DNA from: a virus
Virus record (IMG/VR): IMGVR_UViG_3300029288_006769
Span: 314,367-378,366 of that record
Reading direction: 5' to 3' (one strand)
Length of the DNA stretch: 64,000 bases
Position 1 is the stretch's first letter; each line of letters starts with the position of its first letter. The position numbers were made by a program, and so were the translations under genes. Below the pieces are notes generated by a model that worked only from the letters and a program-made list of their open reading frames with translations, had not been told where the DNA came from and made no database searches. Of this stretch, positions 2,084-59,489 are shown in pieces.

Positions 2084-2287
2084 TTACATTGACTTATAAT
2101 CATCATGAAGATGCAAATATCTGAATTGTCTAATATCTTGTGAGCGCATCGATTTGCATTCAGGACAATCACAAGTATCAGGATCTACATACTTCTGTTG
2201 CTCTTCACACCAACACAACCCATTAGGGCCGAACCATGTGCGATCTAATATCTCGTCAGCTATCTCTGATATTTTTTTCTTATTCAT
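2084..2287 (-). CDS. Small Cys-rich protein with N-terminal IADEIL motif
   Basis: GPNGLCWCEEQQKY; paralog of 2291..2491. Confidence 0.6.
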   Translation of the reverse strand: MNKKKISEIADEILDRTWFGPNGLCWCEEQQKYVDPDTCDCPECKSMRSQDIRQFRYLHLHDDYKSM

Positions 2288-2290
2288 AAG

Positions 2291-2491
2291 TCACCACGTA
2301 ATATCTTTGCGTCGAACATATGAAGGAGGTCTATTACTTGTAGAACCTTCATCTAAAGGCTCACAACCAGAACATCCTTCACCCTCTTCTTCTGTTAAAT
2401 ATTGTTGCTGTTCTTCGCACCAACACAAACCAGAAGGACCATCCCAATCCAATATCTCATTTGCAATTCGAATAACATTTTGACTATACAT
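2291..2491 (-). CDS. Small Cys-rich protein with N-terminal IANEIL motif
   Basis: GPSGLCWCEEQQQY; paralog of 2084..2287. Confidence 0.6.
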   Translation of the reverse strand: MYSQNVIRIANEILDWDGPSGLCWCEEQQQYLTEEEGEGCSGCEPLDEGSTSNRPPSYVRRKDITW

Positions 2492-2506
2492 GAAGTAAGA
2501 AGAGCC

Positions 2507-2521
2507 ATAAAAACTTTAGAA
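2507..2521 (-). promoter_or_regulatory. Phage promoter motif copy
   Basis: + strand ataaaaactttagaa, 16 nt from ATG 2491. Confidence 0.65.
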
Positions 2522-2528
2522 AACAAGT

Positions 2529-3176
2529 TTATAGCTTTTCAAATTCGACTTTTTGTTCTGTTTTGAACTTATATTTGACAGGAACTACACCGAGCTTGTA
2601 GAGTTCTTTTAAAACAAAAACATCAAAATTATTAGCAATAACTATTCCAACAACAAAATCATAAATTCTATTTATCAAACCTAACTTAAAATGTATGACA
2701 TATTTATTAATCTGTCCAACAACATCATGAAATGCGCCATTTTTCTTGACTTCAATAGGATATACAGTCTTTTTGTCTTGAGCTACTAAATCAACTCTCC
2801 CATATCTAGTTTCCATTTCGGTAATAATACAATTAAAATCCGATTCAGCTCCAAGACAAATTCTTAAATCATCTTGAGACAACATGATAGCTTTCACAAG
2901 ATCATCCTGCTTTGAAAAAACTGTTTCATCTTCTTGTCGTAAAACAACAACAGATTTGTCTTCTACAAGATTTGACAAAACTAAATTCTTATCAATAGCA
3001 TTTCCAATTTCTTTAAGATGTTCCCAACGATGATCTTTTTTTAGCGGATCAAAAGATTTCTCATTACTATCAAACTCTTCTCTTAAAAAACTCAAATACA
3101 TTTTAGCATTACTTGAGTCACCTAACAACATATAGTTGTAAGTTTGATAATAAAGAGTTTCTGCTAAAGTCGTCAT
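2529..3176 (-). CDS. NucS/EndoMS-like PD-(D/E)xK endonuclease domain protein
   Basis: E..TRYGRVDLVA...IEVKK...VVGQINKY...GIVIA. Confidence 0.7.
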   Translation of the reverse strand: MTTLAETLYYQTYNYMLLGDSSNAKMYLSFLREEFDSNEKSFDPLKKDHRWEHLKEIGNAIDKNLVLSNLVEDKSVVVLRQEDETVFSKQDDLVKAIMLSQDDLRICLGAESDFNCIITEMETRYGRVDLVAQDKKTVYPIEVKKNGAFHDVVGQINKYVIHFKLGLINRIYDFVVGIVIANNFDVFVLKELYKLGVVPVKYKFKTEQKVEFEKL

Positions 3177-3442
3177 TGAATTCTTTCAAGAATCAAAGGC
3201 TCTGTTTCGATTTCGTCTTTTTCTACAAATTTTTCTGTCTTAGGATCCCTAATTTTTATTTTTTTAATCTGTGTAACTCCATTTACTTTTCTATTAACTT
3301 GTATATTTATATGAGCAAAAACATCATTTCCATCAGCAGAAAATTCTAATCTTTGAACACCACCGATTTGTACATCATCTATGAAAACCAAAGTTCGCAT
3401 CGATGTGCCATCTGTTTCAATTCTAATCTTATTGTATTTCAT
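3173..3442 (-). CDS. Hypothetical protein
   Basis: GGAG RBS, coupled to next gene. Confidence 0.6.
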   Translation of the reverse strand: MKYNKIRIETDGTSMRTLVFIDDVQIGGVQRLEFSADGNDVFAHINIQVNRKVNGVTQIKKIKIRDPKTEKFVEKDEIETEPLILERIQ

Positions 3443-4488: not shown

Positions 4489-4791
4489 TTATTTTCCAAC
4501 TGGAGCTACAGTTTCAATTGCTTTTTGGATTTGTTCTTCTTCAGAAAGGAACATTTTTTCGAGTTCTTTCAAAAACAGATCCCAAACTTTTTCTTTCAGC
4601 TTTGGTTCTAGCTGCGCATAAGGAACTTTTTGCCTTCCCTGAGTAAATGTGCGCGACTTGATAAAATCTAAAAACTTCTGATTGATTTCTTTATAATGCT
4701 GCTTAAGCCACTGACGAGTCACTGCAGCCTCTTTTACAAACTCATCAAATAGAATATTGTCTGCAATTTGTACTATAGCTTCTTTATTCAT
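4489..4791 (-). CDS. Hypothetical protein with KEA/IADNIL motif
   Basis: Likely start MNKEAIVQIADNILFDEFVKEAA. Confidence 0.6.
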   Translation of the reverse strand: MNKEAIVQIADNILFDEFVKEAAVTRQWLKQHYKEINQKFLDFIKSRTFTQGRQKVPYAQLEPKLKEKVWDLFLKELEKMFLSEEEQIQKAIETVAPVGK

Positions 4792-5856: not shown

Positions 5857-6288
5857 CTAGAAAACCTTTAGCACATTTCCGTTCCAACTTGTCATTACCA
5901 TTCCGTCAAATCGTTCGCCATTTTCAATATACTTGATTTTAAAACGACCTAAAAGCGTAAAAGATCCAAATTGGAATTCTATAAACTTTGCTTCATCGAT
6001 TTTCGGGAAGTTGCTATTTTGTTCTTTAAATAAGACATTTAAATTTTCTGCTTTCAAAGCCATTATTTCTCGAGCACCTTTGGTAAGTTCTCTATATGAA
6101 ACTGGCTTTGCACATGAACAATCGGATGGCATTGCTGGTGCAGGTACACCAATATTTGGGGCACTTGTAACTTCAGGTTTTGATTCACATGGCTCGTCTT
6201 GTCCAGAATCTATAACCATTGTTTTTGACTCATCACTTACAACATACTCACCAATTGCAGCATAAATTGTTTTTGCTATGTCTCTCAT
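5857..6288 (-). CDS. Hypothetical protein
   Basis: Overlaps stop of upstream gene; MRDIAKTIYAA start. Confidence 0.55.
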   Translation of the reverse strand: MRDIAKTIYAAIGEYVVSDESKTMVIDSGQDEPCESKPEVTSAPNIGVPAPAMPSDCSCAKPVSYRELTKGAREIMALKAENLNVLFKEQNSNFPKIDEAKFIEFQFGSFTLLGRFKIKYIENGERFDGMVMTSWNGNVLKVF

Positions 6289-6644
6289 ATTTTAAGTTTT
6301 TCCCAAGCATCTTTAAGTGTTTTAATAATGTTGTCAGCATCATCATTTTTTCCTATTGTCCCAGAAAATTCTACCATAAAACCGCCTCCAGGCATTTTTA
6401 CTAGAGTGCCATGCGTATCTGGTCCAACACTAAAAAACCTTTTGTACTTTGCTTCTTTTAAGATTTCGTCAACAATTTTACTGTGTTTTGGCTTTTTTAA
6501 TTCTGCAAAAATATTTGAACTTAATTCTCTTACTTGTGAAATAAGTGATTCTAGATCACCATGGTCTTTTTCTCTTGTGAGTACTTTGATGAGTTGAGAA
6601 AAAAGATCAACAAGATTTTCTTTGTTAAATGCTTCTTTTTTCAT
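6285..6644 (-). CDS. Hypothetical protein with KIVDEILKEA motif
   Basis: Coupled ORF; internal motif. Confidence 0.55.
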   Translation of the reverse strand: MKKEAFNKENLVDLFSQLIKVLTREKDHGDLESLISQVRELSSNIFAELKKPKHSKIVDEILKEAKYKRFFSVGPDTHGTLVKMPGGGFMVEFSGTIGKNDDADNIIKTLKDAWEKLKI

Positions 6645-30397: not shown

Positions 30398-30399
30398 TT

Positions 30400-37378: not shown

Positions 37379-37447
37379 GGAACAACTCCTTACGTTAAGT
37401 TTTACTTTTGAAAACTAGCAGCACTACTGAACAGTTAATCTGAACTT

Positions 37448-37495
37448 ATAAAAGGTTTATAAAAGACAGAGGATTTCACCCCTGTCTTTTTATAA
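37448..37495 (-). promoter_or_regulatory. Hairpin overlapping a variant promoter motif upstream of decoration-MCP genes
   Basis: aaaagacag/ctgtctttt stem; ataaaaggtttataa at 37448-37462. Confidence 0.45.
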
Positions 37496-37501
37496 AACTT
37501 A

Positions 37502-39085: not shown

Positions 39086-39100
39086 AGTATCTCTCCTCAG

Positions 39101-39372: not shown

Positions 39373-39384
39373 TATACTATCCTA

Positions 39385-40023
39385 TTACATTAATTTTACT
39401 AACTCATTACAATGTTGACAGACAACATAATTTGAAGTATAACTTGGTTTTCTATTTTGATCTACAAGATCATCAATAGTATAATGTTCTTCATTCTCAC
39501 AATGAGTACAAGAAACTTTCACATAAGAATTTTCTAAAACAAATGCATTAATTTCTTTGGCCGTTTTTTCTAAACTTGTCTCTTTTATTTTAGAAATTAT
39601 AGATGTGCCATATCTTGCCGAGAAAAAATAGACTTTATCTTCAATAGCACCGTTCTTATATGCTTCTTCATAACCTACAGTCATTTTAGGTTGACTGTTG
39701 CAATACCATACCCATCGTGCTTCATCATATCTGAATCCACATGTCCATACATCAGATCTCTTATTAATCAAATTTTTTTTAATTTCTTCAGTCTGTGTTG
39801 CAAGTTTCAATTGTTTTATGATTTCAAAACTTGCTCTTACAGGATTTGAAGGGAATGTATCTTTAACGCGTTGAATGATTTTGTTTTTTGAAACATCAAC
39901 AATGACAATATCTTTCTCTAAACGAAACGCCTTCAAATTTCTTTGAAGGTCTATAGATGATATTGCTTGTTGTTCTAGTTTCTTGACAACATTAAAACAA
40001 AAAAAATTAGAAAAAAACTGCAT
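39385..40023 (-). CDS. Head-module protein with C-terminal Zn ribbon (start uncertain)
   Basis: CTHC...CQHC; lies between protease and scaffold. Confidence 0.55.
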   Translation of the reverse strand: MQFFSNFFCFNVVKKLEQQAISSIDLQRNLKAFRLEKDIVIVDVSKNKIIQRVKDTFPSNPVRASFEIIKQLKLATQTEEIKKNLINKRSDVWTCGFRYDEARWVWYCNSQPKMTVGYEEAYKNGAIEDKVYFFSARYGTSIISKIKETSLEKTAKEINAFVLENSYVKVSCTHCENEEHYTIDDLVDQNRKPSYTSNYVVCQHCNELVKLM

Positions 40024-40025
40024 AT

Positions 40026-41768: not shown

Positions 41769-41824
41769 GAGGCCTCCGAAAAATTGTCAATCTTTACACA
41801 ATTTTTTGATAAAAGTCTTGATTT

Positions 41825-41839
41825 ATAAAAACTTTAGAA
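41825..41839 (-). promoter_or_regulatory. Phage promoter motif copy
   Basis: + strand ataaaaactttagaa upstream of protease. Confidence 0.65.
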
Positions 41840-41848
41840 AAAGTCAAT

Positions 41849-42334
41849 TTACCATTTGATTTTTGCTCGTAACCATCCATTTAGATCACCAGGTATTGCA
41901 CCTACAATACCTATGACATCAGCATTACCACCTATATTTTCGTTTGTCAAAATTCCATTTGAATTAACATATAGTTTTTGATTATAAGTATAAATTCTTG
42001 TCGTGTCATAAGCATTTCTATTAAAATCTAGCAAAACATCATCTGATATCATTGATGCTGAATGATTGCTTGAATCGACAGGACTGTTTTCATATTTATA
42101 TGGTCGTCTTGCTGTTGCCAATCCATCCATATCTTTAAAATCATACTGTTTTCCATCATAATCTTCAAGTTTGTAACCGTTGATAAGCAAACCAACTGTT
42201 TCATTTGGCAATGCTTTTTCTACAGTCATTTTGTCTACAAATCTTACTATTTGACCACCATACCAACCTGTTCTTAGAAGATTAGGTCCAATTTTAACAT
42301 TAATTCCCCAGTATTTATAGTGGATCTTAATCAT
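41849..42334 (-). CDS. Second decoration-protein paralog
   Basis: Y....KLYVNSNGILTNEN...VIGIV..IP....WL matches 36890..37378. Confidence 0.6.
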   Translation of the reverse strand: MIKIHYKYWGINVKIGPNLLRTGWYGGQIVRFVDKMTVEKALPNETVGLLINGYKLEDYDGKQYDFKDMDGLATARRPYKYENSPVDSSNHSASMISDDVLLDFNRNAYDTTRIYTYNQKLYVNSNGILTNENIGGNADVIGIVGAIPGDLNGWLRAKIKW

Positions 42335-43038
42335 ATTCTTCCTGGCCTTGGTTTTATTCTTGTGGGTCGTTGTATTATAGGCTTTAATTCTCTTGGTCTT
42401 TTTTCTGTCAATGGTTTTTCTTGTTCAGGTTTTGTTGGTGTCACTGGAGCCTTTTGTTGTGGTTTTGTAGGAACTGGTTTAACAGGTACCTTAAGAGTTG
42501 GTTTGACAGGACCTTTTTGTGGGCCTTTGAACTGATCAGGAACTATAAATCTTTTAAACAAAGGTATTGACGCAGCAACATGTTTACAAATCAGATACCT
42601 TCTTTGTGGATCTCTTATATTGGGAGCGGTACCATCCGAGTATTGACGCTCAGAATAATCTTTATCAAGAGCATTAAAATCAGCACCATTATATTTCCAA
42701 GCATTACAATTACAAGATATTTCGACTTCTCTCCCAAGCATACCCTGTGTTTTAGGCCCTGTACCTAATAACTTAAAACGGACATCATAGGGCCCTTTGC
42801 TTTTTGTTTGATGACATTTTACAGAAAACATCCATCTACCATTTTTAGGATCATTACGTTTTGTTGTTGCTACACACCCTTTAGCATATTTGATAGATTT
42901 TTGATTTGTCTTAAATAATAATTCTCCTGCAGACATAGCAAGTTTTGCAAAAGGATCAGAAAACAATACTCCAAGCGGAATAATTTTTCTTGACAATAAC
43001 TCATTTGCTATAGATTGAATGGCTTCTTTATTCATCAA
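42331..43038 (-). CDS. SWIM zinc-finger protein with IANELL motif
   Basis: SCNC...CKHVAA; Pro/Lys-rich tail. Confidence 0.7.
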   Translation of the reverse strand: MMNKEAIQSIANELLSRKIIPLGVLFSDPFAKLAMSAGELLFKTNQKSIKYAKGCVATTKRNDPKNGRWMFSVKCHQTKSKGPYDVRFKLLGTGPKTQGMLGREVEISCNCNAWKYNGADFNALDKDYSERQYSDGTAPNIRDPQRRYLICKHVAASIPLFKRFIVPDQFKGPQKGPVKPTLKVPVKPVPTKPQQKAPVTPTKPEQEKPLTEKRPRELKPIIQRPTRIKPRPGRI

Positions 43039-43436
43039 TAATCTCTTGCTTTCCCTATTATTGTTCCTATAGTACGCGAATCATTCCATTCAGGTATTGC
43101 GCCCAGTCTAGCATTACTTGCTTTTGTCACGTCATCATATAATTGCTTTGATGGGAAGATATATACAGAACCTTTTGCATATGTCTCGTTGTCAACGTAT
43201 TTATCGTTTAGATCAAAGATAATCTCAAAAACTATTTTCCAATGTTGATAAGATTGCTCTGTCTCATCTTCTCTAAAACTTGAATCTTTAAGTTCAAGAT
43301 GTACATGTTTAGATTTAATAGAACTAATAAATTGTTTTACTTTTTTTTCGAAATCAATCTTATCGACAAATTTCTGTTTCGAAACTGTTCTTTCACTTGC
43401 TTTCAAAATTTCATTTGTAATAAGTTCTATATTCAT
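43035..43436 (-). CDS. Hypothetical protein with ITNEILKA motif
   Basis: Coupled to portal stop. Confidence 0.6.
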   Translation of the reverse strand: MNIELITNEILKASERTVSKQKFVDKIDFEKKVKQFISSIKSKHVHLELKDSSFREDETEQSYQHWKIVFEIIFDLNDKYVDNETYAKGSVYIFPSKQLYDDVTKASNARLGAIPEWNDSRTIGTIIGKARDY

Positions 43437-45688
43437 ACTTTAAATTCTTCTCGAATTGTTTCTCTAATTGCACTTTTGATTTTTTCAATCTCGTGTGTTT
43501 CATTTAATTTTGATTCAAGTAAAAAAGTAAGTTTTGAAATATTATCAGCATATAAATCTTTTGCAGCATTTACTTTTTCTGTAATTGGCAATTCATCTTT
43601 AATTCTAGATGCAAAAACTTGAGGTAAATATTTTTTAAGCGTATGAATTCTTATTTTAGTTGTCGAAGATCCATTTAAAGCAAGAATTTCATTTTCTAAG
43701 TTCAAAACAGCACGTCTAGCATTCTGACTCAATTTTAAATCTTTTATCATTGAATCAACCCAAGCCTTCTTTGAGTTTTCTTCAACAATAATAGCAGCAC
43801 CAAGTTGCTCAGCTTTATCCGTGTCCACAAATGGAATATCAGGGATTTCAACTTTATTTTCAGATTCAGCAAATAATTTTACTTTTTTTTGATCTGTTCT
43901 TTCGGGTTTGAGTCTTTTTTCTAAAGGAACTTCCAGTTCTTCTATTTCATCGTCTCTTTTCTTATCTTTTTTATTTTCTTGTCTATCATATCTACGTTGT
44001 TCTCTTGTTTCTGCTGTTTTTGTAATTTTTTCATTTTGTGTCGCAAACATTTCTGTTGATGCTTCAGGTTCATATTTTAAACCAAGTTCTTGTGCCCTTA
44101 ATTCCGCAATTGCAGGTGCAAGAGTTCTTCCAGCTTCGGTAGCAGCACCATTCATCATGGTGAAATAATTAATATCGAGTGGAGTACCTTCAAATCTCTT
44201 GAGCCTTTCTTTAACAGTTTCAGCGTCAAGCCCAAAACACTCGAGCCAAGTTTGCATATCGATTTGACCCTGAGTAACCATTTGAGCAAGCATCTGTTTA
44301 TGGGCTGTATCATCAACAAAATTCAATCTGTTCCATTTGATACGAGGATACAACCATTTGATTTTCTTTTCTTTCTTAGAAGTACCTTCTTCATATTCTG
44401 CCCAATCATTTCTTTTGGCCATAGGAAGAAATAATGATTGAATCACATAACTTTCAATTCTTTCTCTATAAATTGAATATTTTTGATTCATTACTTCTAA
44501 TACGGTTTGTCCATTAGCATAAGAACCTTCACCTAACAAGAAACTTTTATTTATCATTAACCCTATCAACAGTTCCTCGTTTATCCAATTCCATTCTGAC
44601 TCTAATTGCATCAACCCTTGACTTGTTCCAACAAGGTCCCAATGCAATTCATAGTTAGTAATGATGGCGTAATCAGGATCTGCAAAAGCACTGTCGACCT
44701 GTTCTCTAATTATATTCAGATCAGCCATACCTGTAGAATCTGCCCAAATCAAATGTTTCGGCGTAAGATGTCGAGAAGCTACAGCATCCTGTGATTGTCT
44801 TAATCTGTCTTTATAAATAAGAGTTTTGAAATTTCTCTCTACAATACCAGTACCCACAAGGTCATAATCAGCCATTTTGTAGGTGACATGAGCCACATGG
44901 CTACCATGATTTGGATCTGTATTTAAAGGTATTTTCTTTCCTGTTTGTACAAGTTCAATAACATCTTCAGGTATTGCTTTAAAAAGAACACCTGTTTTTG
45001 GGTTATCAGGTCCATTGTTAATAATTTTCTTCATTTGCTCATTTGGAATTAAATCGACTCTCATTATATCAGTAAATTGAAGTTTTTCAAGTTCTATATA
45101 ATCAGGATCTAACAGAGTCAGTTTTGTCCAACGGTTTTTCTGTTCGCTCCATCGAGCAAAAGGAAAGACGTTACCAAGTTTGTAGTATTCAACACCCATT
45201 TGAAGGAGTTTATTGAACAAATCAATACCTTCAGTGGAACACATTTCTTCGTATTCTTCTTGGATCTTCCTTGTTTTTATCTTATCTTTGCTTGGGGGTA
45301 ATGTCAATCTTATACTTGACAAAGGAAGTTCAGCATGAGAATCTATAGCAGTACTAACTAAAGGATCATATTTGTAAAAATAACGACACCATGCATTTAT
45401 TTCTCTATAATCACGAGGAAGTAAGATAGAACTTGGCTCAAATTCTGGGTGGTAAAAGCTTGGCATAGAATTCTTAACATTTGCTCCACCCCCACAAGTA
45501 TTAGCAGTCTTAGACATTGATCTAGACATTCGATCTACTACACGTAACAAACGTTTGTTATATTTTCTGGGCTTTCCTTGATAAAACTCAGAATCTATAA
45601 TAGTTGTGTCATTCCCGAATTTGATCGTAGCGCCATTCTTTTTCATGCCACTTGAATCAAGTTCAGAGCGTTTTTTTCTTTGAATCAT
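43433..45688 (-). CDS. Portal protein
   Basis: Downstream of TerL; WCRYFYKYDPLVSTAIDSH...EYYKLGNVFP...LLDPDYIE. Confidence 0.8.
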   Translation of the reverse strand: MIQRKKRSELDSSGMKKNGATIKFGNDTTIIDSEFYQGKPRKYNKRLLRVVDRMSRSMSKTANTCGGGANVKNSMPSFYHPEFEPSSILLPRDYREINAWCRYFYKYDPLVSTAIDSHAELPLSSIRLTLPPSKDKIKTRKIQEEYEEMCSTEGIDLFNKLLQMGVEYYKLGNVFPFARWSEQKNRWTKLTLLDPDYIELEKLQFTDIMRVDLIPNEQMKKIINNGPDNPKTGVLFKAIPEDVIELVQTGKKIPLNTDPNHGSHVAHVTYKMADYDLVGTGIVERNFKTLIYKDRLRQSQDAVASRHLTPKHLIWADSTGMADLNIIREQVDSAFADPDYAIITNYELHWDLVGTSQGLMQLESEWNWINEELLIGLMINKSFLLGEGSYANGQTVLEVMNQKYSIYRERIESYVIQSLFLPMAKRNDWAEYEEGTSKKEKKIKWLYPRIKWNRLNFVDDTAHKQMLAQMVTQGQIDMQTWLECFGLDAETVKERLKRFEGTPLDINYFTMMNGAATEAGRTLAPAIAELRAQELGLKYEPEASTEMFATQNEKITKTAETREQRRYDRQENKKDKKRDDEIEELEVPLEKRLKPERTDQKKVKLFAESENKVEIPDIPFVDTDKAEQLGAAIIVEENSKKAWVDSMIKDLKLSQNARRAVLNLENEILALNGSSTTKIRIHTLKKYLPQVFASRIKDELPITEKVNAAKDLYADNISKLTFLLESKLNETHEIEKIKSAIRETIREEFKV

Positions 45689-45734
45689 TATTTATACCTT
45701 TAAAATTATTAATCTGATTAATTCTTTAGAAAAA

Positions 45735-46367
45735 TTAAACTGCATCCCAATCAATAATTGATGCATGTGGCCCGTGTCTATGTCTAAATCTAAATTCTGA
45801 ATTCATAATGTATTCAAAAATGTCTTGTTGTTTTGCACCAACAATTGAGGCTAATTCAGCTGCAATTTCTTGATTTGACATTGTCGGGTGTTGCTCAAGT
45901 CTCATATTTATAAGAGTTCTTTGAGAACCTGTAAGACCACATTTCCTATTCAAACGGCGACATGCTCTTTTCAAGTAATTAATTTCAATAGCAGCAGATT
46001 GAAAAAGGCTATCATTCATATCAATGTCATCTGGCACTCGCAAATTATCTATTCTTTTTTTAAGTTCATCAATCTCTCCTTGAGTATCATAATCAGTTTG
46101 CAAATCTTCAAGTTGTTTTTTAAGCTCATCTATTTGAGATTGAAGTGCATCGGTACCAGCATCAGAAGGAGCCTCTGCCCCTGTATCAGTAGCAGGCATA
46201 TCAGCTATATCTTGTGCTAGATCAGGATTTGGTTGTTCATCAGGGCTAACAGAAGGATCATCAGCAGGAACATCTACAGGTTCATTAGTACCCGTTGTTT
46301 CATCGGGCGGGGTATCTTCTGCTGGTGCACTTTGTCTAATAAATCTATCAAACCATGGATGTTCCAT
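45735..46367 (-). CDS. Hypothetical protein (acidic N-terminus, coiled coil, HTH-like C-terminus)
   Basis: Between TerL and portal. Confidence 0.55.
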   Translation of the reverse strand: MEHPWFDRFIRQSAPAEDTPPDETTGTNEPVDVPADDPSVSPDEQPNPDLAQDIADMPATDTGAEAPSDAGTDALQSQIDELKKQLEDLQTDYDTQGEIDELKKRIDNLRVPDDIDMNDSLFQSAAIEINYLKRACRRLNRKCGLTGSQRTLINMRLEQHPTMSNQEIAAELASIVGAKQQDIFEYIMNSEFRFRHRHGPHASIIDWDAV

Positions 46368-46650
46368 GCTCTCTCCTTTGTTTTCTCTCTTGTCTTGCTT
46401 TTTCTATCTGTTCCTGTTTTTGTTTGAATAATTGTCTTGTTATTGCTGCTCTTTTTTGATTTGTAAAGAAACTTGTCTGTTTCTCAATTGCATTAGATAA
46501 GTCTAAAGCTTGTAAAGCCATTTTTTGCATACCAATAAGATAAAATTTAGCTGAAATATCATTCTCTTTCAACATCGAAATTTCTTTATTTAATTCTTGA
46601 GAATGAAACTTCAGTTTATTAATTATTTCTCTAACATGTTCTATACTCAT
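46348..46650 (-). CDS. Coiled-coil hypothetical protein
   Basis: Coupled to TerL stop. Confidence 0.55.
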   Translation of the reverse strand: MSIEHVREIINKLKFHSQELNKEISMLKENDISAKFYLIGMQKMALQALDLSNAIEKQTSFFTNQKRAAITRQLFKQKQEQIEKARQERKQRREHGTSMV

Positions 46651-48518
46651 CTAAATGATCTCACTGGATGAATAGCTCTTTGCAAATTAGTTACCGTTTT
46701 ATGCAATTTCAAACGTCTTTGATAAGCTTGATGACTTGCTACTTTATCACCTGTTGACGTAAAAGTTTGCACTCCATTTGTTCCAACAATACTCAAAGCA
46801 GACATCCCGATTTCATTGTTAGTGGCTATATATGAAGCATTGGCTAAAACATCGCACAAGTCATCCGTTGTTATTTCTCCAAGAGTAGGTGCCTCAATTA
46901 AAAATTGTTTTTTCCCAACTCTTTTTTCCTGTAAATTTTTAAGTTCTTTTATTCCCCGTTCATGATAAAACATGTCGAGTCTTTCATCATAAATAAGATC
47001 TCTCAAATTTTTGTAAATTTTAGTGTTGTAATGTCTACTAAAAGGAGTTTTGAGAGCATTCAATCCTAATTTTTTGAACTTAAGAACAGAAGATGTACTG
47101 TCAAATTGGTCAAATACTATTTTCACTATTCTGAATTTTTGACATAAACTTGTTATATATTCGTGTATGACTTCTTCATCGATATAAGGCAATCCTTCAA
47201 ATTCAGGATCTCTTAATGACCAAACTTTCCATCTGTCTAAAATGACAATTGTTCTTTTTTGTCTTTTTTCTTTTCCTTCGATTACATTAGTTTTTTCTTT
47301 TTGTTCTACATGAACCATAGCAAGAGCATATCCATTTTGAGATGATGAAGGATCTACAGCTATATAATGGGCATAATTTGAAACTGGGACTGTTGTTTCA
47401 CTATCTCTTGTGATACAAGCATCAATTTTTTCAGGGTATCTAAAGAATCCTGAAATTATAGAAGAGAATTCTGCACCAAATTCTGAGTCAAATGATTCTG
47501 GGTTTCTCTTTTTTTCGCTTTCAAGATACTCGAAAGTAATTGTTTCATTCATCTCCCAAGTAGGTATTCTAAACATGATCTTGTTGAGATCAGGTTCATC
47601 ACCTTCTCGACCTATACAATCAAGATATAGATCGTAAAAAATACCTGCTTTGATGTACGGCGACGAAATGCTTATGATTTTTCCATCAAGTCCAAATGTC
47701 GCTACAGAAGGAGTCAATGCCTCATAAATTTGATCTCCTGAACGGTTTCCCTCATTATCAATAAAGTGAGCAATCTCGTCAAGAATTCCAACTATAATGC
47801 TACCACCACGTATACCACGTGCTGTACAAGGCAGAGCCAATATTTTTATAGAAACATGAGGATCTAAAGGTTTCCCGTGTAATCTTGTTTCTTGCGTATA
47901 GAGTTCTAAATCTCTTTTTGTTCTTAAACGAATCTCAGATTGATTTTTGCCTTCGACATAAGGCGTAAACCATTTTGAATTAAGAATTCTATTTTGAGTA
48001 GCTTTTGCAAGAATTAATGCCTGATCTGTTGTACTGGCAATATTGACAATGCGAATTTCTTCGCCTTGGGGTAATTTATAGTATTTTTGAGGATCTACTT
48101 TTAAAATTAGTCTATATGCTTCATATGAAGAAATGACCGATGCAATAAATGTTTTACCAGATCTACGTCCACAAACTAGAACAAGTTCAATAAAATCTTT
48201 AGGATCAAGGTTTCTTAAATTTGTTCTACCTTGTTGAATTAAAAAATTGACATATTCTACTTCAGTTAAATACTTCCCTTCCTCATCAAACGGGAATGAT
48301 CTTACTTTTATAGTTTTTTCTTTATCATCAAGTGAAATACCATAATAAACTTTAAGAACAAGTTTTTCAACAGCATGTAAGGGTTGATCAAGATAAAAAG
48401 GGTGTTCACAGAAGGTGATTATGTCAACTTCTTTTTCTGAATCATCAATGAGTCCCTTTGTTGCTTCTGCAAAAAGGGACTCAAACGAGAAGGAAGTATC
48501 TAAAATATCATTAGCCAT
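46647..48518 (-). CDS. terL: Terminase large subunit
   Basis: Walker A GRRSGKT, Walker B ILDEIAH, ISSP, nuclease AVDPS...FDQF...DDLCD. Confidence 0.9.
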   Translation of the reverse strand: MANDILDTSFSFESLFAEATKGLIDDSEKEVDIITFCEHPFYLDQPLHAVEKLVLKVYYGISLDDKEKTIKVRSFPFDEEGKYLTEVEYVNFLIQQGRTNLRNLDPKDFIELVLVCGRRSGKTFIASVISSYEAYRLILKVDPQKYYKLPQGEEIRIVNIASTTDQALILAKATQNRILNSKWFTPYVEGKNQSEIRLRTKRDLELYTQETRLHGKPLDPHVSIKILALPCTARGIRGGSIIVGILDEIAHFIDNEGNRSGDQIYEALTPSVATFGLDGKIISISSPYIKAGIFYDLYLDCIGREGDEPDLNKIMFRIPTWEMNETITFEYLESEKKRNPESFDSEFGAEFSSIISGFFRYPEKIDACITRDSETTVPVSNYAHYIAVDPSSSQNGYALAMVHVEQKEKTNVIEGKEKRQKRTIVILDRWKVWSLRDPEFEGLPYIDEEVIHEYITSLCQKFRIVKIVFDQFDSTSSVLKFKKLGLNALKTPFSRHYNTKIYKNLRDLIYDERLDMFYHERGIKELKNLQEKRVGKKQFLIEAPTLGEITTDDLCDVLANASYIATNNEIGMSALSIVGTNGVQTFTSTGDKVASHQAYQRRLKLHKTVTNLQRAIHPVRSFR

Positions 48519-49518
48519 TATTGTATGACGCCACAACTTCGAAAATAATGTCTTCTGTTGTTCTGTATCTAAGCATTGCAATTTTGACAAGTTTGTTGAT
48601 CATACTTGCTGTGTAGAGTTCTTTCAATTTTGGACTTTCTCTAAGTTTCTCTCTTCCAATTGCAATCCAATGACGAACCATTCTTTCAGTAAAAGCAGGA
48701 TCTTCTTTACCAAGTTCTTTTGCGACCTCATTACTTGTCAGATCATCAGCTCCTGGATCATCCGGATGATAATATTTTAAAAGAACTTTCTTTTCATTGT
48801 CAGGTAATTTCTTGATTTCTTCCATGAAAAGTCTCATAATCTCTTTGTTTCTTAGAACTTCGTCCGGGAGAGGTTCGTTACTCTTGAGTGTGTCCATAAG
48901 AAGAAGTGCGCTCTCACCTTCATCACCAGAAACTTCTTCGTACATACTTTTGATAGTTCCCTGACCAAAAAGTTTTAAAATCTCAAGAGTTTTATCTACA
49001 TCTGTCTTAAGAATTTCAGAAAATTCTTTAAGATCTTTTGATTCATAATCAGCATTTTCATCATCAAGTTGAGATAAATCGATTTTGTTAAAATCTGGCA
49101 TTCTTTTATTTTTTTGAAAAAATGTCCTTAGAGCATTCTTGAATCTGATTTTATATTTTCCTACATCAGGTATAACTTCACCTTTACCTAGCATTTCGGC
49201 AATCGAGTGTCTATTGATTTTCGTTCCAAAAGCTTTTGCAATGTAACCTACAATTTCACCAGCAGATTTGGGAGTAAGTTCCATAAGAACTTCAAGAAAA
49301 CTACTCTCAATGTGATGACGAATTTCTTCCCTTTCTTTTGCATTACTAGCAAGTTCAGAAACTTGTTTCATCTTTTTCCCTATCAATCCGCCAAATGTCT
49401 CGCGTAAATCATCAAAGACTCTTGTTTTATCTTTTCTTGATGTTGCTGAATCTTGCAAGGTTTTAACAGCGTTTACAAGATCATCACCCTCCAATTTTTT
49501 AGATTTAAGCCAAAACAT
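48511..49518 (-). CDS. Sigma70-family (FliA/WhiG-like) RNA polymerase sigma factor
   Basis: LMDTL...LPDEV...IKKLPDNEKKVLLKYY...LTSNEVAKEL...TERMVRHWIAIGREKLR (region 4); AGGAG before MFWLK. Confidence 0.7.
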   Translation of the reverse strand: MFWLKSKKLEGDDLVNAVKTLQDSATSRKDKTRVFDDLRETFGGLIGKKMKQVSELASNAKEREEIRHHIESSFLEVLMELTPKSAGEIVGYIAKAFGTKINRHSIAEMLGKGEVIPDVGKYKIRFKNALRTFFQKNKRMPDFNKIDLSQLDDENADYESKDLKEFSEILKTDVDKTLEILKLFGQGTIKSMYEEVSGDEGESALLLMDTLKSNEPLPDEVLRNKEIMRLFMEEIKKLPDNEKKVLLKYYHPDDPGADDLTSNEVAKELGKEDPAFTERMVRHWIAIGREKLRESPKLKELYTASMINKLVKIAMLRYRTTEDIIFEVVASYNNG

Positions 49519-52092: not shown

Positions 52093-53805
52093 TTAATTTT
52101 TATGTTTATGAATCTGAACTACGCGCTCTTGCTGTAAAGCTTTTTCTTTTGAAGGATGCCTTCCTAAAAGTCTATCTTGATCCTTTGTGTATAAACACCA
52201 TCGTTGTTCTGATTTGGGTCTATTATCTTGATCTTTTTTAGGGCATTTTTTGATTATTGCTATCTTGATAAGTTCATGTTTACTAAGAATCTTTTTCTCT
52301 TCATTTGTCAAAAGGTTACTCAAGTATTTTATTGGATCTTTAAAACCATAACGCTCAATATATTTGAAAATAATATTGAAAGCTTCCCAATTTTTACTAA
52401 ATTTGCAACCTAATAATTCAAATTCATTTGTTTTGAATCTAATTAAACGAAATTCTTTAATTTCTTCTTTCAAAGTTTTCAAATCTTGAAAATCTCGTGT
52501 TAATTTTGCTTTTATATCAGTCGTGTCCTTATTTGCTTTTTCTTGATAGACTAAGTCATTCACATGAACTTTTGTTCTAAAAATAAAGGGTAGAACAAAT
52601 CTAACAATAGACAAAGCTTGCTGTCGTTCTTTTGCAAATTCTTCATCAGGTACAAAAGTAGTATCGACAAATTTTGGAGAACTCAACCACGAATCCTTAA
52701 GAATATCATAAACAGAATCAGATTCTAAACGTCTATTTTTCCCTATAACAAAGAATTTCACGGGATGGTCACCAACCAACTTCTTGTCATTTAACCTATA
52801 GACATATTGGCGGATAAATTGCCTTATCTCGAGATCATTCGAGCAATGTCTAACCGATTGTAGATTGTCTTGTCTAAACTTGTCAAAATCTATAGAAACA
52901 TTTATATCGACATCAGTTTCCGGAACATATTGATTAGTAACCATTGATCCTGTCATTGAAATATCAGTTACCCAATTTTTATAATTGTTAAATTTAGAAA
53001 GAACACTAGAGAGCCTATCAAGAATTATCTTTCTAATTTCAGATTTTAATCTTATTGGTTCGACTTTCAAATCCCAAATCATAGGACAAAAAGTTTCTTG
53101 AGGATAATCAATTATCGAAGCATGCTTGGGCAAACGTCTTTCAAAAAAAATTTCAAGTTCTTTGGGTAAGAGTTTTTTCTTTTTTAAAACTTCTGCATTC
53201 TGCTCCAACATATCTTTCCCGCCTGGGACATAATCTCTTCTTTCGATTAAAGGTTGCATTATCTGAGCAATAATTCTCTCAGTATTTGCTTTTTTGTATT
53301 CTGATGTATCTTTAACTTTTATCCAAAGAAATTTTTTAGCACTTGTTTTTATAAGAGCATAATAACCATCAACTTTTTTACCATTAAATTTTACCACGTA
53401 TTTCTTATCATAATCGACATCTACAAGTTCAAAAGTTCCTTTGTCATAAATATCGACTGTTCCTGCACCATAATGCCCTTCTGGTATAGTGCCCTCAAAA
53501 TCACGATAAGCTATATCATGATCTTCAGTTTCTGATGCAAGCAAAGGTTTATCGCTTGGGAGTTTATGCTTTGGAATTGCCCAACTTCTAAGCACTGTAC
53601 CTGATTTGTCTGGGAATTTTGTTTCTGGTTCCGTTGTGCTATCATTATCCCAAACACGCTTTTTGTAATATGAAGTAAGGGCATCTTTCAATGAATCAAC
53701 AGGGAATTCAAGTCGTAGATCCCAGTGTTCATTAGTAGCGACATGATGTTGTATTACGAATTTTCCTTTATATCCAATTTGAAGTTTTTCTTTATCGTAA
53801 CTCAT
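52093..53805 (-). CDS. LigD 3'-phosphoesterase domain fused to pol-beta nucleotidyltransferase and a small C-terminal domain
   Basis: FVIQHH...HWDLRLE, SWAIPK, TEDH..Y..FEGTIP..YGAG.V; TGSM..NQY..ETDVDIN. Confidence 0.85.
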   Translation of the reverse strand: MSYDKEKLQIGYKGKFVIQHHVATNEHWDLRLEFPVDSLKDALTSYYKKRVWDNDSTTEPETKFPDKSGTVLRSWAIPKHKLPSDKPLLASETEDHDIAYRDFEGTIPEGHYGAGTVDIYDKGTFELVDVDYDKKYVVKFNGKKVDGYYALIKTSAKKFLWIKVKDTSEYKKANTERIIAQIMQPLIERRDYVPGGKDMLEQNAEVLKKKKLLPKELEIFFERRLPKHASIIDYPQETFCPMIWDLKVEPIRLKSEIRKIILDRLSSVLSKFNNYKNWVTDISMTGSMVTNQYVPETDVDINVSIDFDKFRQDNLQSVRHCSNDLEIRQFIRQYVYRLNDKKLVGDHPVKFFVIGKNRRLESDSVYDILKDSWLSSPKFVDTTFVPDEEFAKERQQALSIVRFVLPFIFRTKVHVNDLVYQEKANKDTTDIKAKLTRDFQDLKTLKEEIKEFRLIRFKTNEFELLGCKFSKNWEAFNIIFKYIERYGFKDPIKYLSNLLTNEEKKILSKHELIKIAIIKKCPKKDQDNRPKSEQRWCLYTKDQDRLLGRHPSKEKALQQERVVQIHKHKN

Positions 53806-54083
53806 AAAACTTCAAACCTCATATTTCTTAATCTTGACAATCTTCTTTTCAATTCATTTTTAAGAGTTCTTTCATTAGTTACTTCCATATTCATAAGAAT
53901 ATCAAGAACTATTGATATGTTAGGCCTTCCCACAAAATTAGAAAAACCTGGAGCAGCCCGAATTGTTTTTTGAAAAAGAAGTGAACTTGGCCTGTCTAAA
54001 ACAACATTAATTCGTATTTTTCTTGTTCTGTCAGCAGCTTCTTTTAAAATTTCATTTGCTATTTTCTGGACTTGTTTCTTCAT
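53802..54083 (-). CDS. Hypothetical protein with KIANEILKEA motif
   Basis: Coupled ORF. Confidence 0.6.
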   Translation of the reverse strand: MKKQVQKIANEILKEAADRTRKIRINVVLDRPSSLLFQKTIRAAPGFSNFVGRPNISIVLDILMNMEVTNERTLKNELKRRLSRLRNMRFEVL

Positions 54084-54315: not shown

Positions 54316-55166
54316 AATGCACCTCCAGTTTTATTGATTTCATAGAGTATGCGTAGATAAGAGGATTCTTTCTTTTTATTATCCCATTTGAATTTCTTTC
54401 CAATAACTTTTTGATAAATTTTATCAAACTTTGCATCTTCTTTTTTAAAACTTTTTAGAGAAGAAACTGGTACACAACATAATCCAGTTTCTATTCTCAT
54501 GCTATATGGTGCAATATGACCACCATCAGATTTCATCGGTGAAAGATCTATATTAATTTTTGAACCAGAAGGCTTATTTGTTGCAATTACAATCTTGTCA
54601 TCGTCTTTAAAATATTCTTCCAGACGTTTTTCAACATCTTTTCTGATAGCACTTATATCACGTTTTGATTTTAATTTTCCTTTTACATGAAAACCTCGTT
54701 TTCCTGTAAAATTTATCTCTGGATTTGATTTGAAATCTTTTTGTTCTTTTATAAAATCAACACATTGCGAAACAATATCTTTCAAAGATTCAAATGTTGC
54801 ACTGGACCCTGGATCAATATCGAAAATAGCTTCATCCGTTGTAGTTGGAGATGTAATATGGTATTCACCTGTCTTCCCTGTGTGATATTGTTCAAAATCA
54901 TCAACTGAATTGATCCTAATATATTGAGTTTTTTTATCATAAGGACGTCTTATGTAAAGTCTTGAACCCGGACGAATTGCCATGACAACAAATAAATCAT
55001 GTCCTTTTAATTCTGGTACAAGTTTATTTTTTACACCATCATAATAATTCCAGACATCAATTTCTTTCACACCGTTAGAAAAATATTCATTCTTTTTGAC
55101 TACAAGTTGGTCAGGATGTTCTGGATAATCTGCTGTTTTATTCAGTAGTTTTTCCATCAAATTCAT
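54309..55166 (-). CDS. LigD-type AEP primase-polymerase
   Basis: FDIDP, TGKRGFHV, INID, IAPYSMR...VPV. Confidence 0.85.
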   Translation of the reverse strand: MNLMEKLLNKTADYPEHPDQLVVKKNEYFSNGVKEIDVWNYYDGVKNKLVPELKGHDLFVVMAIRPGSRLYIRRPYDKKTQYIRINSVDDFEQYHTGKTGEYHITSPTTTDEAIFDIDPGSSATFESLKDIVSQCVDFIKEQKDFKSNPEINFTGKRGFHVKGKLKSKRDISAIRKDVEKRLEEYFKDDDKIVIATNKPSGSKINIDLSPMKSDGGHIAPYSMRIETGLCCVPVSSLKSFKKEDAKFDKIYQKVIGKKFKWDNKKKESSYLRILYEINKTGGALC

Positions 55167-55581
55167 CCGTTTTATCGTTCAATGCATCAGCTTTTGTCTT
55201 ATGAATTATTTTATCTTTGTGTTGCGGTGGTGCATAAAGTGTGTAAAGTTTAAGATCTTCTTTTCCTGTGTTAATTATATTGTGTTCTGTACCTGCAGGA
55301 ATCAATATAGAAAAACCATCTTTAATTTGATGGGTCTCTCCACTAATAACAACTTCACCAGAGCCAGCATCTAATCTAAAAAACTGATCGACATCTTTAT
55401 GTGTTTCTTTTCCAATATCTTCTTTAGGTTTTAATGTCATCAAAACTAATTGTAAGTTTTCTGCTGTATAAATAACTTTCCTGAAATTTTTGTTTCTTAT
55501 TGTTTCTTCTTCTATATTGATGACAAAACCTTTTTTCTTGTTTTTCTTCAAAATCTCATCGGCTATTTTTGAAACATTCAT
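55138..55581 (-). CDS. Cupin domain protein with KIADEILK motif
   Basis: N.NFRKV..T...QLVLM..IG.E.H..DQFF...IPAGTEHN. Confidence 0.85.
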   Translation of the reverse strand: MNVSKIADEILKKNKKKGFVINIEEETIRNKNFRKVIYTAENLQLVLMTLKPKEDIGKETHKDVDQFFRLDAGSGEVVISGETHQIKDGFSILIPAGTEHNIINTGKEDLKLYTLYAPPQHKDKIIHKTKADALNDKTDEFDGKTTE

Positions 55582-56072: not shown

Positions 56073-57533
56073 CTATTCTTCCTGATAAGATTCTGGCCAT
56101 ACACCTTCATTTTGTTTAAATTTCTTCTTTATTTTTTCGCCATTAGCTTTAGGGTTAAGTTCTTCTAGAGCAATCATAGCATCTTCCCAATATATTCCCT
56201 CATGATCAATTAATGTTTTAAGTTCTTCAGCAAGTTTATCATAATCAGTAGAGTTCCTTACGATGATAAATTCTTTAATGTTTTCACGATTCTTAGGGTG
56301 TTTCATAGGTTTTCTGCCAAAAGCAGCAAGAATTTCACCAGCAATTTTGTCAATATTGTTATTCAGAACTGAAGCGGTTTTGATTTGCGCTTTTTTAGTG
56401 AAATGCTTGTGTATTGCAGCTTTAATTTCTACCATTGTTTGTCCAGGAAAGAAGTTCTCACGTATAATTTCGCAAGCTTCTCTAAGACAAGAAATTATTT
56501 CTTTGTCTTCATTGGTTGCAAGAATTTTTGCAGTATTTACAGTTTCAACAACATGAGACCCTGTAAAATCTTTTGAAAGCGTGATAATTTCATCATCGAC
56601 AGCTTTTCCAAGATGTTTGAAATACATCATTTTAAGATTCTCAGGTCCAGGTAAACCAATCTCTATTCTTCTATCAAAACGACAAGGGCGAGAAGAAAGA
56701 GCTGTGTCCAGCATTTCAATTTTATTTGTAGATGCTATAACAACAAGTGGTTCACCAAATTTTCTCATACCATCAAGATTTGTAAGCAGATCGCCAAGTT
56801 GATTTGAAGCTGTAAAGTTATCTCTATTTCCACTCATAAAATCTATATCTTCGAATGCAAGAACTGTTGGGCCAAGATATGCCAAGAACTCAAACAGCTT
56901 ACTAACAGCCATATATCTAAAAGATTCAGCTGTCACATAAATTCTACTTACATTTTTCTTGTCAAGATCATTAAAAACAGCTTTTACAACAGAAGTCTTC
57001 CCAGTCCCTGGAGGCCCATACATAACAAGACCCCGTTTGTTCACTCCTGCTGTTGCAAATTTTTGATTTCCAAGAAATTCTGATGTGTTAAGCCGTATAT
57101 CTTTCTTAGCTTTTTCGGTAAGGATAACATCATCCCAAGAAACTTTCGGAACATCCCTGAAAAACATTGTTTCTTTTTCAGCATATAGGCATTTTCCACG
57201 ATATTGATTTTTCTTAATCATATCGTTTTCAAATCTGTCAATCCATTGTTTTGCTTCTTCTCTTGTTTGAGCATAACAGTTCACATGAAAACTACCATAC
57301 TGCATATATGCTGTAATTATTTTGTTATCATAAACTGCAGATAAATTTTCAATTGCAGGCATTGTGTTATAGACATCGATTTGTAAATCATCTAAAACTG
57401 GTTTTTTCCCAAAATCATTTGCTGTTGCAATTTTTGGTGTTTGTTCCTTCAACAGATTTGTGATTGTATATTTTGCAATTGGGACAAGTAAACCATCATA
57501 AGAACGAGAAACTGGAGTGAGACCGAGTATCAT
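56073..57533 (-). CDS. AAA+ ATPase with C-terminal KIAGEIL motif
   Basis: GPPGTGKT, FEDID, STN...LD.AL..RP.RFD. Confidence 0.85.
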   Translation of the reverse strand: MILGLTPVSRSYDGLLVPIAKYTITNLLKEQTPKIATANDFGKKPVLDDLQIDVYNTMPAIENLSAVYDNKIITAYMQYGSFHVNCYAQTREEAKQWIDRFENDMIKKNQYRGKCLYAEKETMFFRDVPKVSWDDVILTEKAKKDIRLNTSEFLGNQKFATAGVNKRGLVMYGPPGTGKTSVVKAVFNDLDKKNVSRIYVTAESFRYMAVSKLFEFLAYLGPTVLAFEDIDFMSGNRDNFTASNQLGDLLTNLDGMRKFGEPLVVIASTNKIEMLDTALSSRPCRFDRRIEIGLPGPENLKMMYFKHLGKAVDDEIITLSKDFTGSHVVETVNTAKILATNEDKEIISCLREACEIIRENFFPGQTMVEIKAAIHKHFTKKAQIKTASVLNNNIDKIAGEILAAFGRKPMKHPKNRENIKEFIIVRNSTDYDKLAEELKTLIDHEGIYWEDAMIALEELNPKANGEKIKKKFKQNEGVWPESYQEE

Positions 57534-57547
57534 ATTTAATCTCCTTT

Positions 57548-57883
57548 TTAATTACTCTCTTTTAGATGTTTTTTATTAACAATGTGGTATTGTTCTAATG
57601 GGAAAGCTTTAAGTCTTTTCAAAACATCAAGTACTTTTTGTTTGCTTTTTACATCAGAATTTATCTCTACTTCTACAAGATTTTTGCCAGTAAAATCTGG
57701 GAACTCTTCGTCATCTATATCAAAAACTTTAAGCTCTACTGTTAATCTGCTTAAATGCCTTTTCAATTCTTCAATTTTTGTTTCATCAAGACCCCATGAC
57801 CCAAGATCCTTTGGATATTTTGCCGATGTTTCTAAATTGAAAGCAAGTTTTTTAACTATAGAATTCAATTCTTTCAAAATCAT
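57548..57883 (-). CDS. Hypothetical protein
   Basis: GGAGG RBS; ELNSIVKKLA start. Confidence 0.6.
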   Translation of the reverse strand: MILKELNSIVKKLAFNLETSAKYPKDLGSWGLDETKIEELKRHLSRLTVELKVFDIDDEEFPDFTGKNLVEVEINSDVKSKQKVLDVLKRLKAFPLEQYHIVNKKHLKESN

Positions 57884-59019
57884 AAGTTTCCTCCAACAAC
57901 TGATCTTATAATAGACTCAGATATAATAAAAAGTTTAGAACTTTTTAAAAAATTTTTTTTCATTTTAGCATAATCTGGTAATTGACTCAAACGCAAATCC
58001 TGTGCATTTATATCTTTATCGGTTCTTTCTCTAACGAATCCAGGTTTTGAAATAGTAGCAGCAAATTGATCTTCAATTTTTTCCCAAGATTTATCTTTAA
58101 ATTCAAATGTATTGACAGGTCTATAATTCAATCTCTCGTAACTTGTTTCTATAACTTTATTCATTTTAAAAGGATCGACCCAAATAGTTCCATTTTCTTT
58201 CTTTATCTCATATTTTTTAGCAAGTTTCCACCATTCATCCCGATCAGTATCTGTAAAACCAACTCCTAAATTTATGACTTTATAAAACTGTTTCCCATCA
58301 TAAAAACCTAATATCAAAGCCCCCATACGGCCTTTATTCTTCCCACGACCTTCTTGAACAGCTAATACGCCAAGATCTAAAGTAAAAACAGGTTTAGACT
58401 TATAGATTTTTCCATCTGCCGTTCGAACAACTATACCTTCATTTTTTTCTTTTTCGACCCACTTGTTCCAAACTGATTTCAAGTCAGAAACTTTTCCGAT
58501 TTTATGATCTACTGGATAAATATGCTTCGATTTCCCAAACCATTTTTCGAGTTTTTCAAAATTTGTTTTATAATCTTCATAAGAACTTGAAACTTCTTTA
58601 TTATCAAGTTCATGAACTTCAAAAGGAAAAAATTCTATATGTTCTTCTTCACCAAGTTCTGGTTTTCTTAACGTTGATTCAGTATCGTTAAAATGTACTG
58701 GTTTTCCATGAGATGAAGTCTTTGCAAGTTCTCCAAAAATAATAGCCTGTCGAACTTTTTCTTTTTTCAAAATAGTTTCTATTTCGTTCGACACAGGCAT
58801 ATCTTGACGAATTCTACCATCTTTTGAACTGAACTTTACATCTCCTGGAGTATATTCCATGCCACCTAATTCGCCATCAATTTTTTCTGACGCGAAAATC
58901 TCTTGGTCTCCAACTTCTTTTTTGAGCTCATCAAAGCTTAAGGAGACCATACCTTGATGCTCTTTCCAGGATTGTACTTGTTTTGTTAAGCTATTAGACT
59001 TGTCAATATGGGACTTCAT
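57880..59019 (-). CDS. ATP-dependent DNA ligase
   Basis: EKIDG, IFGEL, EGIVVR, YKSKP, OB-fold EGRGK..GRMGALILG; likely start MKSH. Confidence 0.85.
   Translation of the reverse strand: MKSHIDKSNSLTKQVQSWKEHQGMVSLSFDELKKEVGDQEIFASEKIDGELGGMEYTPGDVKFSSKDGRIRQDMPVSNEIETILKKEKVRQAIIFGELAKTSSHGKPVHFNDTESTLRKPELGEEEHIEFFPFEVHELDNKEVSSSYEDYKTNFEKLEKWFGKSKHIYPVDHKIGKVSDLKSVWNKWVEKEKNEGIVVRTADGKIYKSKPVFTLDLGVLAVQEGRGKNKGRMGALILGFYDGKQFYKVINLGVGFTDTDRDEWWKLAKKYEIKKENGTIWVDPFKMNKVIETSYERLNYRPVNTFEFKDKSWEKIEDQFAATISKPGFVRERTDKDINAQDLRLSQLPDYAKMKKNFLKSSKLFIISESIIRSVVGGNL
57926..57940 (-). promoter_or_regulatory. Phage promoter motif copy inside ligase 3' end
   Basis: + strand ataaaaagtttagaa upstream of 57883. 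Confidence 0.45.
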
Positions 59020-59034
59020 GTCAAATAACAGCAA

Positions 59035-59049
59035 ATAAAAACTATAGAA
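59035..59049 (-). promoter_or_regulatory. Phage promoter motif copy
   Basis: + strand ataaaaactatagaa, 16 nt from ligase ATG. Confidence 0.65.
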
Positions 59050-59075
59050 AAGAACTAGATGTTTAGACAAACGTT

Positions 59076-59489
59076 TTAAACAGTTACAGCTTCGGCATCT
59101 ACTTCCTCAAGTATTTTTTGCAAATCATACTTGGGTTTCAATTTCATCTTATGCTGTTGTTTGTCGTATTCAAGGAAAGGATGTGGAGATTCACGCTTAT
59201 CTTTTATGAAAAGCTCGATAAACTCTTTACCACCTCGAAGAAGTTCATCTATCGATAATGTCTTGACATCAGGGTTTCCTAAGAAAAACTTTTTATCAAG
59301 ATATCCAAAATCTGCAAGAGCAATTTCAGGTTCACTTTGGCTAGTAAAATCTTCCCAAAATTTTTTTCGATCTTCAGGCGATAAAAACTCAAAATGTAGA
59401 TCGGCATGCCCTTTCCCCTTAACAGGTACCTGAGGCATTGCTTCTTTTACTATATCATCTAACAATCTATTATATTCAGCACATTTCAT
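59076..59489 (-). CDS. Hypothetical protein with LLDDIVKEA motif
   Basis: AGGAG RBS. Confidence 0.6.
   Translation of the reverse strand: MKCAEYNRLLDDIVKEAMPQVPVKGKGHADLHFEFLSPEDRKKFWEDFTSQSEPEIALADFGYLDKKFFLGNPDVKTLSIDELLRGGKEFIELFIKDKRESPHPFLEYDKQQHKMKLKPKYDLQKILEEVDAEAVTV

Follow-up and report, generated by a model that had tools for sequence, protein, structure and literature searches.

Known targeting peptides and a shared N-terminal helix in an uncultured megaphage

In phage T4, capsid-targeting sequences (CTS) are N-terminal propeptides of 10–19 residues that bring a range of internal proteins into the scaffolding core before being cleaved off (PMC9026906, PMC3012670). In P1, the large enzyme DarB enters the capsid under the direction of its N-terminal residues, which can also bring in a reporter (PMC9024508), and the prohead protease of the giant phages SPN3US and phiKZ processes the N-terminus of many head-internal and ejection proteins (PMC5694885, PMC10052503). 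The encapsulation peptides of bacterial microcompartments (BMC) consist of an amphipathic helix at a protein terminus, joined by a variable linker, and were discovered through comparison of targeted and untargeted homologs, with residues 6, 9, 10, 13 and 14 being the key residues in PduP (PMC4594438). Here we describe a short helix with the core I-A-(D/N)-E-I-L, referred to as the tag, with which about a dozen small proteins and enzymes of an uncultured megaphage and its relatives begin. The analysis centred on a window of 64,000 nt, bases 314367–378366 of one 424,144-bp virus record (IMGVR_UViG_3300029288_006769; 35% G+C, ~526 genes). Genes, named by their first coordinate in the window, were called with a simple codon-usage caller made for the analysis, and orthologs were compared with those of a syntenic relative, a 210-kb IMG/VR contig labelled G002. 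A literature search found no paper that describes an I-A-(D/N)-E-I-L tag.

The analogy with the T4 CTS (carried by IPI, IPII, IPIII and Alt) is apt: here likewise a short N-terminal peptide is common to otherwise unrelated small proteins and enzymes, and like T4 the present phage has a separate scaffold and prohead protease, with carriers scattered outside the head module. However, the tag differs from the CTS in its residues, no consistent L/I-x-E cut site follows it and the head genes are not of the T4 type (gp23-type major capsid protein (MCP), gp21 protease, gp22 core). The signal of P1 DarB is also N-terminal, but DarB is the single known P1 cargo, there is no sequence likeness and P1 is without a separate scaffold. 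Unlike the tag, the propeptides of SPN3US and phiKZ are long and do not present one shared motif; their cleavage follows a small-residue-x-E rule. With the BMC encapsulation peptides (PduP, PduD, EutC) the tag shares a terminal amphipathic helix and a poorly conserved linker, and the hydrophobic spacing of PduP (6, 9, 10, 13, 14) is equal to that in the consensus of the SWIM-like carrier family described below; an acidic residue is also important in encapsulation peptides. Just as encapsulation peptides occur on targeted and not on untargeted homologs, the extension is here found on phage-type and not on bacterial cupins, although the present tag is shorter (~12 residues) and an HK97-fold capsid or its scaffold would take the place of the shell. 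Since the BMC shell gene (PF00936) is absent from the 424-kb genome, with control genomes positive, the tag is not a BMC encapsulation peptide: it belongs neither here nor to the T4-type CTS, but would work like both.

Enrichment and position of the tag

The regular expression I[AVT][DNG][ENT][IL]L, which describes the motif core, matches nine proteins in the window, and a direct check located all nine copies that an initial annotation of this DNA had considered strong. The 424-kb genome has 11 matches, whereas 300 per-protein shuffles gave 0.70 on average and never more than 4. A position-specific scoring matrix (PSSM) built from the N-terminal tag copies gave 10 sites of at least 15 bits genome-wide, where 0.3 were expected. 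The copies in the window are:

2240..2287, minus strand: N-terminal tag (residues 1–16) of the 67-residue Cys-rich protein 2084..2287; PSSM 25.9 bits
2444..2491, minus strand: N-terminal tag of the 66-residue protein 2291..2491, a paralog of 2084; PSSM 27.1 bits, retained in the ortholog
4744..4791, minus strand: N-terminal tag of the 100-residue protein 4489..4791; regular expression, PSSM and ortholog
6447..6485, minus strand: internal tag (residues 54–66) between the two domains of 6285..6644; PSSM 19.6 bits
42988..43035, minus strand: N-terminal tag of the SWIM-like 234-residue protein 42331..43035, second gene after the portal gene
43398..43436, minus strand: N-terminal tag of the 133-residue protein 43035..43436, first gene after the portal gene, with a 4-nt overlap
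53236..53280, minus strand: apparent internal tag relic (residues 176–190) in the 570-residue phosphoesterase-nucleotidyltransferase protein 52093..53805; by homology
54033..54083, minus strand: N-terminal tag of the basic 93-residue protein 53802..54083; PSSM 27.2 bits
55543..55581, minus strand: N-terminal tag of the cupin 55138..55581; Pfam Cupin_2 at residues 47–115
56322..56354, minus strand: internal motif copy (residue 397) in the AAA ATPase 56073..57533; PSSM 16.2 bits
59436..59489, minus strand: diverged N-terminal tag of the 137-residue protein 59076..59489; weak here, clear in the G002 ortholog

Eight motif copies start at residues 6–10 of their protein when the ATG codons at 4791 and 43035 are used as starts. 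Counted automatically, seven matches begin no later than residue 14, where the internal rate predicts 0.25 (P = 1e-8); the eighth is that of gene 4489, whose true start is the ATG at 4791 and not the TTG at 4857, with the ortholog beginning at the same Met and carrying a T-A-E-E-I-L version. Amongst 1,971 proteins of unrelated phage loci, used as a control, there was a single N-terminal match: the rate per 100 proteins is 1.33 here and 0.05 in the control (~27-fold). In shape, the tag is a helix of ~12 residues, amphipathic through a hydrophobic face at positions i, i+3, i+4, i+7 and i+8, with a conserved acidic pair, and a short variable linker lies between it and the cargo domain. The hydrophobic moments of the tags fall in the 77th–99th percentile of all N-termini in the genome.

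Several weaker versions had also been proposed, and these were assessed through their PSSM scores, without locating each copy individually. None of those assigned to 5857, 33561, 34121, the sigma factor, PrimPol and the ligase reaches 9 bits, and they are at background level (genome-wide, 40 sites were seen at this level and 12 expected), whilst the version in 59076 was rescued by orthology, as its G002 ortholog begins with a clear copy. A K-x-A site, thought to lie usually beside the tag, follows only ~4 of 12 tags. The tag had further been described as usable at the N-terminus, at the C-terminus and internally: N-terminal use stands and there is no C-terminal example in the genome. The two clear internal copies (at residue 57 of 6285 and in 52093) look like products of gene fusion. 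Residues 1–53 of 6285 match 73-residue proteins of relatives that have the tag at their own N-terminus, and 6285..6644 itself looks like a fusion of two genes; the copy at residue 178 of 52093 appears to be a fusion relic, since in G002 and in contig L103 its homologous counterpart is the extreme N-terminus of a separate 139-residue protein. The copy in the AAA ATPase is probably not a tag, with its acidic pair missing in an 82%-identical ortholog. As a separate observation, 52093–53805 (minus strand) joins a phosphoesterase-type N-terminal part to the protein that is free-standing in G002 (139 residues), with additional sequence between its two homologous ends.

A portable element selected as a peptide

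Once the tag is removed, only 2084 and 2291 are still detectably related (E = 1e-8), and the tag is carried by at least eight unrelated families. Of ten proteins searched against Pfam and PHROG (59076 and nine tag carriers), seven gave no match; what Pfam recognised were the cupin barrel (residues 47–115), an AAA domain and, weakly, a SWIM finger. Synonymous positions vary at every motif codon and the upstream DNA is unrelated between tagged genes: the conserved object is therefore the peptide and not the DNA, and selection on the tag acts at the protein level. The same two observations rule out a DNA- or RNA-level repeat or shared leader. That the tag descends from a common ancestor as one duplicated N-terminal module, or is a nucleic acid element at gene starts, is accordingly extremely improbable: whilst 2084 and 2291 are indeed true tandem paralogs, no other carrier pair is related beyond the tag, and nothing is shared upstream.

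The cupin offers a comparison with cellular proteins. Its closest bacterial homologs (from candidate-phyla-radiation bacteria and Sphingomonas; 130–138 residues) begin right at the domain, at residue ~17, without an extension, whilst phage-type metagenomic homologs (146–157 residues) exhibit an amphipathic extension of 12–25 residues followed by a variable linker. In the AlphaFold2 model of the cupin the tag forms a separate helix at residues 3–13, with predicted local distance difference test values of ~71–76 versus 97–98 for the barrel, and in that of the SWIM protein the tag helix spans residues 3–14 and is followed by a low-confidence linker. These models support the placement of the tag outside folded domains, in agreement with the earlier suggestion that it lies outside catalytic domains. 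The SWIM-protein model had no fold match in the PDB, and a search of the ESM Atlas with 43035 gave no usable match.

In G002, an N-terminal phi-x-(D/N/E)-E-I-L tag is present on the orthologs of 2084 (as an L-S-D-E-I-L version), 2291, 4489, 42331, 43035, 53802 and 59076, and further tagged small genes lie near its endolysin and AAA ATPase genes. The 53802 ortholog pair exhibits an overall identity of 35% with the tag unchanged, and the 43035 family has kept tag variants in 10 relatives. For the SWIM-like protein 61 homologs were found in public metagenomes; in 40 aligned family members the six motif columns are 72–78% conserved and are followed by a variable stretch. In the orthologs of 35413, 45735 and 6285 the tag was gained or lost in single relatives. 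Found on unrelated families, coming and going between orthologs and missing from cellular cupin homologs, the tag is supported as a portable add-on, as had been proposed.

Protein searches showed the tag in one clade only. A peptide search across IMG/VR returned 74 loci, in most of which the peptide is part of an internal helix in an unrelated protein; a second genome with multiple tags was not among them, and no tags were found in the head locus of Tunturiibacter phage Tunturi_5. Outside the window, at 209019–209552 and 380934–382900 of the virus record, further small genes begin with tag variants: a tandem pair encoding 44 residues each near 209 kb and two genes just beyond the window end.

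These data bear on whether there is a common reader at all. The tag could be a convergent N-terminal helix, arising from AT-rich codon usage and general helix-start preferences, with each copy serving its own protein; a phi-phi-x-x-phi-phi pattern is indeed 1.8-fold enriched at the N-termini of unrelated phage loci, and the peptide K-I-A-(D/N)-E-I-L-K is found inside many unrelated viral proteins. However, the motif with its acidic pair shows the ~27-fold excess over control phage N-termini given above, the tag is kept across orthologs while its flanks drift, it is an add-on absent from cellular cupins, and its codons include GCN and GAN and are hence not simply AT-rich. Due to the specificity of the motif and the cupin comparison, we consider purely convergent origin unlikely; a shared docking tag of some kind is, on the other hand, likely.

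Tagged genes in the head module

The MCP of the present phage is a 292-residue HK97-type protein (matching Pfam Phage_capsid and phrog_2522) with 97% identity to the MCP of G002 and 48% identity to gp27 of the cultured Bacillus phage G, its nearest cultured relative. The head module comprises the following main features:

35941..48590, minus strand: head module embedding two tagged genes; PHROG and Pfam matches
46647..48590, minus strand: TerL
43433..45688, minus strand: portal, after TerL
40026..41768, minus strand: prohead protease, 580 residues
37502..39085, minus strand: probable scaffold, acidic, 527 residues
35941..36819, minus strand: MCP

On the minus strand the gene order is TerL, portal, two small genes, a 161-residue gene, protease, a 212-residue gene, scaffold, a 162-residue gene and MCP. 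We compared this module with those in viral and metagenomic loci of relatives, which came from digesters, sludge and sediments, and head gene order is identical in all of them. There, tag variants stand at the start of every gene that immediately follows the portal: members of the 43035 family, of the SWIM family and, in many cases, of a third family of 70–117 residues that the present genome lacks. Where a locus is long enough, the portal is followed by a tagged gene, the tagged SWIM gene, often the third tagged gene, and then protease, scaffold and MCP. Gene position thus supports a link between the tag and the head-assembly module. The two tagged genes after the portal overlap their respective upstream genes by 4 and 1 nt, so that 43035 and the SWIM gene would be co-expressed with the portal. 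Late timing is suggested for a second tagged cluster by its close packing with endolysin and holin-like genes. Lysis and tail-fibre genes are typically late, and other tagged clusters adjoin such genes.

Further features of the module concern the protease and the surroundings of the MCP gene. The prohead protease (40026–41768, minus strand), for which there is no sequence match in the PDB, contains a KOW/uL24-like segment (residues 451–548; E = 0.0025 against ribosomal protein uL24) in the long extension at its C-terminus. A tag-like stretch at residue 302 of the same protein was rejected, being unconserved across 13 orthologs. Just downstream of the MCP gene, window positions 34383–35432 (minus strand) hold a homing-endonuclease-like gene (NUMOD3 and a TnsA-like nuclease domain), and G002 has a related gene elsewhere in its head module.

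Head loading and competing explanations

Our best guess, to which we assign a probability of roughly 45%, is that the tagged proteins are loaded into the phage head. The tag would act as a portable N-terminal address helix whose greasy face docks on one phage-encoded receptor, most likely the assembling prohead core, through its scaffold, portal or protease; the tagged proteins would be enclosed in the head and delivered along with the DNA in a manner similar to T4 CTS cargo, possibly with cleavage of the tag and injection. The prohead is favoured as receptor because the most constant carriers are encoded between portal and protease, because their genes overlap the upstream genes, so that they would be made together with the portal, and because the phage has a separate scaffold and protease whilst the other tagged clusters adjoin typically late genes.

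Several observations weigh against head loading. Most tagged genes lie outside the head module, amid lysis and DNA-repair genes and adjoining a Cdc48-like AAA ATPase gene. No consistent cleavage motif follows the tag, with L-K-E-A or K-E-A present after only ~1/3 of tags, and the plain hydrophobic helix pattern is, as described above, enriched at N-termini in unrelated phages as well. In addition, the tagged proteins are not significantly faster-evolving (55% versus 64% identity, P = 0.085), unlike the internal proteins of T4: since this divergence is not significant, a T4-like picture of hypervariable cargo is not established here.

The position of the AAA ATPase gene raises the alternative that the tag docks on a hub unrelated to the capsid, for which this Cdc48/VAT-like unfoldase (56073..57533) is the leading candidate: its effect on tagged proteins could be unfolding, remodelling or handover, and another hub of phage or host could act likewise. 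The ATPase belongs to the classical unfoldase clade (best PDB matches VAT, AFG2 and p97, E = 1e-36 to 1e-30), is 82% identical in G002 and lies within 4 kb of 4–6 tagged genes in both genomes. Such machines usually choose their substrates by terminal peptide tags. However, it is gene proximity that links the ATPase to the tag, and the most constant carriers across relatives are the tagged genes inside the head module. We thus regard a hub of this kind as somewhat unlikely. The ATPase itself (56073–57533, minus strand) is a single-ring protein encoded directly upstream of the endolysin and exhibits a 120-residue N-domain of no recognised kind.

If head loading is correct, the T4 capsid-targeting principle would also hold in an unrelated phage group that combines HK97-type heads and a separate scaffold with very large genomes. 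Some dozen unknown proteins would become candidate injected effectors, including the cupin enzyme and part of an end-joining kit, and a simple transferable rule (a 12-residue helix and a linker) could be used for finding cargo in metagenomic phages and for packaging foreign proteins.

N-terminal peptides in phage G and on other cupins

The cultured phage G appears to carry a tag of its own. At least nine of its proteins, including gp13, gp17, gp38 and gp53, start with M/L/V-K-R-L-I-K-K-(S/A/G), and of ten forward-strand matches to K-R-L-I-K, seven directly follow the start codon (NC_023719.1, 9289–38131; W01:C1, places 73333, 147657, 254655, 388150 and 446712). The M-K-R-L-I-K-K type would be another N-terminal tag, basic in character, in a relative that can be cultivated. 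Proteomics of phage G particles identified 104 proteins, amongst them many DNA-metabolism enzymes (PMC12484599). With its own N-terminal tag and these published data, the cultured phage G can serve as a test bed.

Cupin homologs of other phage lineages (viral contigs L147, L152, L155, L161, L164 and L166) start with M-K-x-(L/V)-V-(K/R)-E-S-L-N-E-(W)-F, and in L161 a 103-residue gene adjoining the cupin begins with a peptide of the same M-K-x-(L/V)-V-(K/R)-E-S-L-N-E type. It is conceivable, albeit speculative and on the unlikely side, that phage-G-like megaphages run a general, lineage-specific system of cargo addressing, in which each lineage would have its own N-terminal tag read by its own prohead core, with swappable enzymes (DNA-repair, anti-host) being packed and injected. 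Candidate lineage tags may then be I-A-x-E-I-L in the present phage, M-K-R-L-I-K-K in phage G and the V-K-E-S-L-N-E type on the cupins of other phages.

Elsewhere in the window, positions 8001–16000 and 24001–32000 hold collagen-like fibre genes with RCC1-like neighbours, where the G+C content is 37–42% versus ~32% elsewhere.

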